Source: Escherichia coli
Lineage (GTDB): Bacteria; Pseudomonadota; Gammaproteobacteria; Enterobacterales; Enterobacteriaceae
DNA length: 64,000 nucleotides
Reading direction: 5' to 3' (one strand)
Assembly (NCBI RefSeq): GCF_003018115.1
Contig: NZ_CP027457.1
Below, piece by piece: positions 38,870 through 38,983 of this stretch. The position numbers and the translations under genes were made by a program. Within the stretch, counting starts at the first letter, position 1; every line of letters begins with the position of its first letter. Below the pieces are notes generated by a model. The model did no database searches. It worked only from the letters and a program-made list of their open reading frames with translations, and was not told the DNA's origin.

Positions 38870-38983
38870 ATGATGACAACATTACTACCCGTTTTCACTA
38901 AGCCTTCCCCGTTGGCGCTCAATGCTCTGCGCGCTGGCCGTATTTGCCGTTTCCTTCTTATCCCGGATGGAAGAATCCGCTGA
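38870..38983 (+). CDS. Candidate small ORF (37 aa, MMTTLLPVFTKPSPLALNALRAGRICRFLLIPDGRIR) upstream of yhiI
   Basis: AGGA Shine-Dalgarno 5 nt upstream of ATG; lies in the 366 bp yhiJ-yhiI intergenic region; below the length cutoff of the ORF track. Confidence 0.25.
   Translation: MMTTLLPVFTKPSPLALNALRAGRICRFLLIPDGRIR

Follow-up and report, generated by a model that had tools for sequence, protein, structure and literature searches.

yhiY, a translated upstream open reading frame in a conserved leader of the yhiI-rbbA-yhhJ operon

A small open reading frame upstream of yhiI

The intergenic region between yhiJ and yhiI of Escherichia coli raises the question of whether a short open reading frame (ORF) just upstream of the yhiI-rbbA-yhhJ operon is a gene and, if so, whether its peptide, its translation, or the RNA that surrounds it is what matters. 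In a preliminary description of a 64,000-nucleotide stretch of contig NZ_CP027457.1 (the whole stretch analyzed here, hereafter the window), this ORF was presented as an unlisted 37-codon frame that could encode a leader peptide or a small protein affecting expression of the operon. The ORF and its Shine-Dalgarno (SD) sequence were exactly where they had been placed. On the plus strand, positions 38870-38983 read ATG ATG ACA ACA ... CGC TGA, 37 codons and a stop that encode MMTTLLPVFTKPSPLALNALRAGRICRFLLIPDGRIR. The spacer between SD and AUG is 6 nt and not 5, a trivial correction, and the distance to the operon, given as about 60 bp, is a 62-nt gap: the stop codon ends at 38983, and yhiI begins with an ATG at 39046. 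Two further in-frame starts upstream, ATG (38864) and GTG (38843), lengthen the mechanical ORF to 46 codons. Features of the locus are listed in Table 1.

Table 1. Positions of yhiY, its leader elements, and neighboring genes in the window
Feature	Position	Strand	Basis
Sigma-70 promoter of yhiY-yhiI-rbbA-yhhJ, TAGACA-N16-TACTAT, TG before the -10	38685-38712	+	Consensus scan; Shimada et al. 2014
Lineage-specific segment of 116 nt separating the -10 from the conserved leader core	38713-38828	+	Single copy in 4282/5426 E. coli genomes
Near-invariant block of about 45 nt, TATGCGTGTTTCATTTACGGCCAGGAATGCTGATGATGACAACATT, with the 5' strand of P1 and the SD and start codons of yhiY	38838-38883	+	Alignment of 23 leaders
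P1 5' strand, UGCGUGUU, of the predicted long-range helix enclosing the upstream ORF	38840-38847	+	RNAalifold prediction
C-rich, G-poor tract in yhiY, candidate rut site	38854-38958	+	C 30-37%, G 17-23%; composition only
yhiY SD, AGGA	38860-38863	+	Read in the sequence; 6-nt spacer to AUG
yhiY CDS, translated upstream ORF	38870-38983	+	RefSeq CDS yhiY WP_001296785.1; Pfam PF23514; ribosome-profiling start peaks; mass spectrometry
P3 hairpin, CCGCUGAAC-GUC-GUUCGGCGG, its 5' arm containing the yhiY stop codon	38977-38997	+	Pair probabilities 0.89-1.0
Second RNA 3' end, LB OD 2.0, at the T of the yhiY TGA	38981	+	Strings of Adams et al.
Rho-associated RNA 3' end, MG1655 position 3630645; 43 nt before yhiI, 6 nt 3' of P3	39003	+	Adams et al. 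supplementary files 1 and 3
P1 3' strand, AACACGCG	39005-39012	+	RNAalifold; pairing across 23 sequences; single-species folds
yhiI, HlyD-family adaptor, first large gene of the regulated operon	39046-40113	+	ORF list, RefSeq
rbbA, next after yhiI	40110-42845	+	ORF list, RefSeq

Taken by itself, the ORF is no more than chance gives, and its size lends it no statistical weight. Across six frames the window holds 128 ATG-initiated ORFs of 37 to 60 codons, compared with about 178 in shuffled sequences, and 67 ORFs of at least 20 amino acids overlap the 4.5 kb surrounding yhiY. One of the mechanical frames, an antisense ORF of 72 amino acids (38848-39066, minus strand), was without any support and was rejected. 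The significance of yhiY therefore comes only from outside evidence, namely its annotation, published translation data, and conservation.

That evidence makes it essentially certain that the ORF is the known gene yhiY, which is named, annotated, and represented by a Pfam family. A 601-nt query around the ORF was 100% identical to strain F9792 and 98.2% identical to strain EC600, where RefSeq places a yhiY CDS at locus positions 3271-3384, equivalent to 38870-38983 of the window (product WP_001296785.1), followed by yhiI and rbbA. The description of the ORF as unlisted was accurate for the ORF track that it relied on; RefSeq annotates the CDS at the same coordinates, and the novelty that was implied does not stand. 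The peptide matched Pfam PF23514 (YhiY) with E = 6.1e-30 and a score of 103.1 bits (cutoff 27), and its residues 1-37 aligned to model positions 1-37. No NCBIfam model matches the peptide, so its naming rests on exact-protein evidence and Pfam. Differences between the window strain and K-12-type strains are synonymous or lie in the flanks, and the K-12 protein is identical.

The start-site mapping with retapamulin or Onc112 that had been proposed as a check was already published. Weaver et al. (2019) identified yhiY as ORF9 by ribosome profiling with both compounds, picking its initiation from 160,995 candidates, and called as its start the second of three in-frame AUGs (38864, 38870, and 38873), the same AUG as in the preliminary description. 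In the same study, 36 of 38 SPA-tagged candidates were detected, tagged YhiY among them; new names were given to numbered ORFs only where synthesis had been demonstrated, and yhiY was so named. A 2025 proteomics study detected YhiY by top-down mass spectrometry (as an intact product), DIA, and PRM, at about 1000-3000 copies per cell, and also detected MgtL and TnaC. Measurable accumulation of this kind is unusual for a pure leader peptide, yet judging by MgtL and TnaC it is not unknown. A real translated small ORF had thus been spotted from sequence alone; finding yhiY adds nothing new, and its residual value lies in the mechanism and the conserved leader architecture described here.

The copy number, together with detection of the intact and tagged protein, would suit a different role, in which YhiY is a trans-acting small protein such as a modulator of the YhiI-RbbA-YhhJ ABC transporter and its position in the leader ensures co-expression. 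AcrZ, which modulates AcrB, offers an analogy. The YhiY peptide itself has a pI of 11.8 and no transmembrane-like segment, and a search for a solved homologue returned none (best E of about 1.2, to an unrelated PAS protein), all of which speaks against such a role.

Conservation of the yhiY start and divergence of its peptide

The 601-nt query gave one match each in 5412 of 5426 complete E. coli genomes, with "yhiY: protein YhiY" as the feature beneath, and a 176-nt core-leader query matched 5412 E. coli genomes at 95% identity or more. Conservation of the frame, the second check that had been proposed, did not refute the ORF: disruption is rare in E. coli, with an intact annotated yhiY in 59 of 60 evenly spaced genomes. 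The sole exception carries an IS1 insertion in the 5' end of yhiY along with an rbbA pseudogene. C-terminal frameshift and early-stop variants of yhiY exist and are rare. The order yhiY-yhiI-rbbA, with a gap of 61-62 nt, also holds in yhiJ-less E. coli, E. albertii, and other Escherichia, where the upstream neighbor is yhiM. Since yhiY keeps with yhiI whether its neighbor is yhiJ or yhiM, it belongs to the yhiI operon. This constant linkage to the transporter operon would also be expected of a trans-acting partner of the transporter, as would the retention of both peptide ends (MMTTLLPVF and RFLLIPDGRIR) within Escherichia.

A comparison of seven Escherichia sequences argues otherwise. The dN/dS of yhiY was 0.2-0.9 versus 0.01-0.06 for yhiI. 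Codons 1-13 had 1 variable nucleotide of 39 and none at third positions, codons 14-26 had 21 of 39, evenly spread over the three codon positions (7, 5, and 9) and accompanied by indels, and codons 27-37 had 7 of 33. Third positions of yhiI vary at 157 of 355 sites, a baseline of 44%, so the lack of any third-position change in codons 1-13 places the constraint there at the nucleotide level; the conserved N-terminus, which spans all synonymous sites, is then poor evidence for a conserved protein. By these substitution patterns, the middle third of yhiY, which varies freely, is effectively neutral and the peptide is weakly constrained.

Loci of other genera were fetched through YhiI orthologues. 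Upstream ORFs (uORFs) with the same SD and AUGAUG start were found in Citrobacter, Salmonella, Pseudocitrobacter, Klebsiella, Raoultella, and Enterobacter. The uORF has 45 codons, reads MMTTLLP.F ... LIP[DE]G..R-stop, and ends 63-64 nt before yhiI in Salmonella, Pseudocitrobacter, and C. amalonaticus. The variation between 37 and 45 codons is a multiple of 3 nt, and in four genera the indels are in frame and leave the ORF open. A 1-nt deletion in the C. freundii group changes the C-terminus of the product initiated at MMTT, and an overlapping MSMRVSF frame bears FLLIPDGISR instead. In Klebsiella, Raoultella, and Enterobacter the uORFs have 78-98 codons, share little past MMTT, and run out of frame 67-131 nt into yhiI. 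Kluyvera leaders have lost the start or retain a 4-codon MMTT-stop. A small protein acting in trans would have to tolerate the altered C-terminus of the C. freundii group, the unrelated product of 78-98 amino acids in the Klebsiella group, and the near-absence of a product in Kluyvera, and we regard this role as unlikely.

The C-terminal motif [FL]LIP[DE]G..R-stop is the best-conserved part of the peptide and is common to Escherichia, C. amalonaticus, Pseudocitrobacter, and Salmonella. Its retention raises another reading, in which YhiY would act through its specific sequence as an arrest or sensor peptide, like TnaC, SpeFL, MdtU, or ToiL, with LIPDGRIR-stop stalling the ribosome on a small molecule or antibiotic and thereby blocking Rho or remodeling the leader. 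Efflux-type ABC systems are common targets of sensor leader peptides, and the operon after yhiY is of this type. The distribution of the motif is less favorable: the C. freundii group has kept its nucleotides but no longer encodes it in the MMTT frame, and the uORFs of the Klebsiella group read on without it. Within Escherichia the C-terminus has also taken non-synonymous changes (R to I, L to F, and R to H). We found no similarity between YhiY and solved nascent-chain, arrest, or leader peptides.

The near-invariant block in Table 1 is preserved in 23 leaders of Escherichia, Citrobacter, Pseudocitrobacter, Salmonella, Klebsiella, Raoultella, and Enterobacter, and is kept in Kluyvera too. It was present in all Enterobacteriaceae loci, was not found in Hafnia, Proteus, Providencia, Morganella, and beyond, and occurs once in the window. 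The GGA core of the yhiY SD is invariant across the 23-sequence, seven-genus alignment and in Kluyvera. These observations would fit a structured leader RNA that is itself the functional unit, sensing a protein, ligand, or small RNA, with yhiY translation a by-product of an SD-like sequence. Synonymous and loop positions are conserved along with the rest of the block. Two overlapping frames (MMTT... and MSMRVSF...) are kept, which points to retention of nucleotides over retention of one frame, and an invariant GG at 38936-38937 occupies codon positions that differ from genus to genus. Against this reading, the SD and AUGAUG are exactly the most conserved part, initiation at yhiY is strong enough experimentally to have been selected by profiling, and the frame remains open for 37-45 codons despite its indels.

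RNA structure and Rho-dependent 3' ends of the leader

RNAalifold predicted a long-range helix, P1, that encloses the uORF. Its strands paired in 100% of cells across the 23 sequences, compared with 26-53% in slid controls, and the helix was part of the minimum free energy structure of 18 of 26 species folded singly. The 5' strand was invariant in 106 metagenomic copies scanned for variation. There were 27 one-sided substitutions in the 3' strand, each turning U-A into U.G, and Pseudocitrobacter has in addition a single compensatory C-G; covariation did not exceed shuffle controls. P1 is best described as a predicted conserved pairing with weak covariation. The hairpin P3 was paired in 95% of cells with two compensatory pairs, and the Klebsiella and Raoultella group has a hairpin of other sequence at the same place.

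Other candidate structures fared less well. P2, a local hairpin that RNAalifold proposed to pair the start codons, was rejected, with all pairs invariant and a probability near zero in single-species folds. P4, a hairpin over the FLLIPDG codons, was paired in 77% of cells versus 72% when slid by +1, with covariation below shuffles; the FLLIPDG block is fairly well conserved, and we could not account for this by RNA pairing. The stability of the single-sequence fold of the core leader was no better than that of shuffles (z = -0.14). A search of Rfam 15 returned chance-level matches only (E = 0.85, 4.8, and 7.8; 13-19 bits versus gathering scores of 36-91).

The retention of P1 in every aligned sequence and of a P3-type hairpin with differing sequences adds to the case for a sensing RNA in which yhiY translation is incidental; the weak covariation and the lack of an Rfam match detract from it. 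Weighing these points with the conservation of the start described above, we consider this a possible explanation of low probability. It is in part compatible with the explanation that we prefer, a uORF whose translation acts in cis, as a structured element that gates uORF initiation would fit both.

The transcript that carries these structures starts at a promoter upstream of yhiY. The identical promoter string is listed by Shimada et al. (2014) as a constitutive RpoD promoter for yhiI-rbbA-yhhJ. The transcription start lies at about 38719, 7 nt past the -10, where the 5' end of the yhiI fusion primer of Adams et al. (GAGACTGTTG...) also maps. Other genera have a homologous promoter (TAGACA/TGGACA ... 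TAGTAT) directly 5' of the conserved block, and a consensus scan found no promoter-like site between yhiY and yhiI. The 116-nt segment that follows the -10 in the window is missing from E. albertii and other Escherichia and from Citrobacter, Salmonella, and Klebsiella. It makes up most of a stable 103-nt 5' RNA (38719-38821; fold z = -4.35), at whose last position, 38821, Term-seq placed an abundant 3' end.

Adams et al. (bioRxiv 2020; eLife 2021) reported that a yhiI fusion increased more than 2-fold in a rhoR66S mutant, indicating Rho-dependent premature termination in the yhiI leader, and listed yhiY-yhiI among uORFs that had been validated though not characterised and that were followed by a 3' end in under 200 nt (Adams et al. 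2021). We placed their 3' ends on the window using the 61-nt strings of their supplementary file 1. The end at MG1655 position 3630645 had 762 reads upstream and 101 downstream without bicyclomycin, and 792 and 351 with it; it was given a Rho score of 3.34 ("Yes") and flagged "uORF", and its intrinsic-terminator score was 2.14, short of the required 3. Our terminator scan of the leader likewise found no intrinsic terminator; P3 is followed by CAGUUGUAAC, without a U-run. An end 6 nt past P3 fits termination by Rho followed by trimming of the RNA to a stable stem. Because the fusion held the 5' UTR together with the ORF, and yhiI itself contains another Rho-dependent end (Adams et al.), some of the Rho effect may arise outside the leader.

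The second 3' end, from stationary phase, lies at the first base of the yhiY stop codon, which is itself inside the conserved P3 hairpin. Both features would be consistent with a ribosome arrested at the stop codon, and Adams et al. liken yhiY to mdtU, the C-terminus of MdtU being conserved. With the motif missing from the C. freundii-group product and the Klebsiella-group uORFs, and no inducer in the literature searched, we judge sequence-specific arrest to be quite improbable.

A sliding-window composition analysis located the C-rich tract in yhiY, with a C/G ratio of 1.5-1.9 at 38854-38958 and less than 1 in the flanks. One other way in which uORF translation could influence yhiI, by freeing the yhiI ribosome-binding site through alternative pairing, was considered and rejected: the site had a predicted unpaired probability of 0.47 unmasked, 0.47 when the uORF was masked, and 0.44 when a ribosome occupied the stop codon. 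A literature search found no paper testing the effect of yhiY translation, or of a start-codon mutant, on yhiI. For conditions that induce yhiI or rbbA it returned nothing decisive, only a listed FlhDC SELEX site and, from evolution under paraquat, a large deletion.

Proposed role of yhiY translation and comparison with known systems

With moderate confidence, we propose that yhiY is a cis-acting uORF in which the act of translation, by modulating Rho-dependent attenuation, matters more than the peptide. This reading best fits a uORF whose start is its most conserved part, whose peptide is weakly constrained, within which Rho probably loads, and just after which attenuation occurs. Evidence for yhiY translation, the promoter, Rho dependence, and the 3' ends comes from others; the identity of the ORF, its conservation pattern, the weak constraint on its peptide, the peak in composition, and the conservation of pairing in P1 and P3 come from this analysis.

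The proposed mechanism starts from the constitutive sigma-70 promoter, which drives transcription of the leader; most transcripts end early, by the action of Rho, just past yhiY. Rho would load on the C-rich, G-poor stretch within the yhiY frame, a putative site that we assign by composition. Ribosomes translating yhiY would cover this candidate rut, allowing RNA polymerase to proceed into yhiI, and poor initiation at yhiY would expose it and lead to termination. The processed 3' end would then be shielded by the P3 hairpin spanning the yhiY stop codon. As the yhiY SD and start lie in the near-invariant block, beside the predicted P1 helix that closes the uORF domain, the model suggests that initiation at yhiY is itself the regulated step.

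The leader-peptide idea in the preliminary description agrees with Rho-dependent termination in the yhiI leader and with the weak constraint on the peptide; we infer its effect on yhiI, and that translation of yhiY controls access of Rho. Collectively, the comparative pattern (a kept start and RNA context, poor peptide conservation, a predicted long-range helix, and a C-rich tract within the ORF) favors control of Rho through translation over a trans-acting protein.

A broader proposal is more tentative, and we put it forward as a speculation with a small chance of being correct. In this proposal, yhiY is embedded in an Enterobacteriaceae-wide structured leader RNA, consisting of the block, P1 closing a domain of about 170 nt, and P3, which would gate uORF initiation according to a ligand, a protein, or the state of the ribosome and so set Rho-dependent attenuation of an ABC-type exporter operon. 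If true, the conserved leader element would be a new class of cis-regulatory RNA and more than a leader peptide.

Like the trpL, hisL, and leuL attenuators, yhiY is a short leader ORF before an operon with a hairpin near its end. A classical attenuator of the trpL type was nevertheless rejected: MMTTLLPVFTKPSPLALNALRAGRICRFLLIPDGRIR has no codon run beyond LL, no U-tract follows P3, the intrinsic score falls short of its threshold, and termination is Rho-dependent.

In the toiL-topAI and tnaC-tnaA systems, a ribosome on the leader ORF occludes or exposes a rut site and thereby sets read-through into the operon. The general logic proposed for yhiY is the same. The ToiL and TnaC peptides have defined sensing residues and known ligands (antibiotics and tryptophan, respectively), whereas YhiY resembles neither in sequence and there is little constraint on its peptide.

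Several validated E. coli uORFs, yhiY included, have a Rho-dependent 3' end close by. The mdtU-mdtJI leader (Adams et al. 2021) resembles that of yhiY in that a small, validated uORF precedes a transporter operon and Rho-dependent 3' ends follow it at a short distance. mdtU has been tested for dependence on uORF translation and spermidine, whereas yhiY is distinguished by conservation that is largely at the nucleotide level and by its predicted long-range helix.

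Promoter position and upstream neighbours

In the other lineages compared (L003, L005, L009, L014, L022 and L029), we found a promoter of the form TAGACA/TGGACA-N16-TAGTAT, with a TG preceding the -10, approximately 20 nt before the conserved block, the near-invariant stretch (38838-38883) that holds the 5' strand of the predicted long-range helix P1 together with the Shine-Dalgarno sequence and start codons of the yhiY uORF. This close spacing is the ancestral arrangement. The window promoter (38685-38712), identical to that of the other lineages at 26 of 30 nt in a by-eye comparison, lies directly after the yhiJ stop codon and is displaced from the block by a 116-nt segment; therefore, the 5' UTR of yhiY is 151 nt in the window, compared to ~45-50 nt in the other lineages. 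The segment is carried by 4282 of 5426 E. coli genomes; the other Escherichia and the other genera compared lack it.

Further upstream, a block of DUF4049 genes is present in ~79% of complete E. coli genomes. The remaining E. coli and other Escherichia lack it, and yhiY there has yhiM (DUF2776) next to it upstream, encoded on the opposite strand. The upstream DUF4049 paralogue is a frameshifted pseudogene in strain EC600.

Features of the yhiY leader and its surroundings, in window coordinates
Feature	Position	Strand	Remark
DUF4049 (YhiJ/YhiL family) genes, two paralogues	35132-36796, 37058-38680	+	upstream of yhiY
116-nt segment	38713-38828		single copy; between promoter -10 and conserved leader core
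103-nt RNA	38719-38821		mapped TSS 38719 to Term-seq 3' end 38821
Direct repeat GATTATGG	39028-39035, 39042-39049		two copies around the yhiI start

A candidate 5' RNA and the 3' ends of the leader

The 3' end of the 103-nt RNA, at MG1655 position 3630827, was recovered by Term-seq with 321,364 and 643,233 reads (Adams et al.). This very abundant end has approximately ten times the reads of the end at 39003, the Rho-associated RNA 3' end past yhiY. When the 103-nt RNA was folded, both of its ends were paired, with a free energy of -34.4 kcal/mol (z = -4.35) that 0 of 200 shuffles matched. An Rfam search with the same RNA returned no match. We consider it a candidate for a stable 5' fragment, an sRNA or an additional attenuator upstream of yhiY.

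The dominant 3' end of the leader shifts with growth phase, from 39003 at an OD of 0.4 to 38981 at an OD of 2.0, with a higher read count (98,749) at the later point (Term-seq, Adams et al.). The yhiY stop codon begins at 38981, and an end placed exactly there could reflect either ribosome-related cleavage or different trimming.

Within yhiY itself, a GG at 38936-38937 is invariant even though the surrounding middle of the uORF is hypervariable, and its codon position differs between genera. As in the single-sequence MFE structure, GGCC at 38936-38939 could pair with the self-complementary GGCC at 38856-38859, which adjoins the Shine-Dalgarno sequence.

Altered leaders in E. coli and other genera

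The first copy of the repeat at the yhiI start includes an ATG (39032) that is out of frame. At the repeat, a 10-nt deletion with loss of the yhiI ATG occurs in a single metagenomic E. coli contig (L170) and is possibly an assembly error. In E. coli E423 (L090, locus 792-1598), an IS1A inside the 5' part of yhiY has cost the leader its promoter, conserved block and uORF start. The rbbA gene of E423 is also a pseudogene, interrupted by an internal stop, which suggests that the operon is decaying in this strain.

A 1-nt deletion in the region about -237 to -59 from yhiI is common to the six C. freundii-group loci (L015 and L017-L021). As a result, the conserved coding blocks for the N-terminus (MMTTLLPDF) and the C-terminus (FLLIPDGISR) lie in different frames. 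An overlapping frame starting MSMRVSF is open for 57 codons and includes the conserved C-terminus; in this group, either another start may be in use or the nucleotides alone may matter. Klebsiella, Raoultella and Enterobacter (L025-L031) keep the uORF start, with an ORF of 78-98 codons that overlaps yhiI out of frame by 67-131 nt. Kluyvera-type leaders (L024, L162 and L187) carry a large deletion, which leaves either MMTT followed by a stop or ACG at the place of the first ATG. P1 and the invariant block are kept in all of the Klebsiella-group and Kluyvera-type loci.
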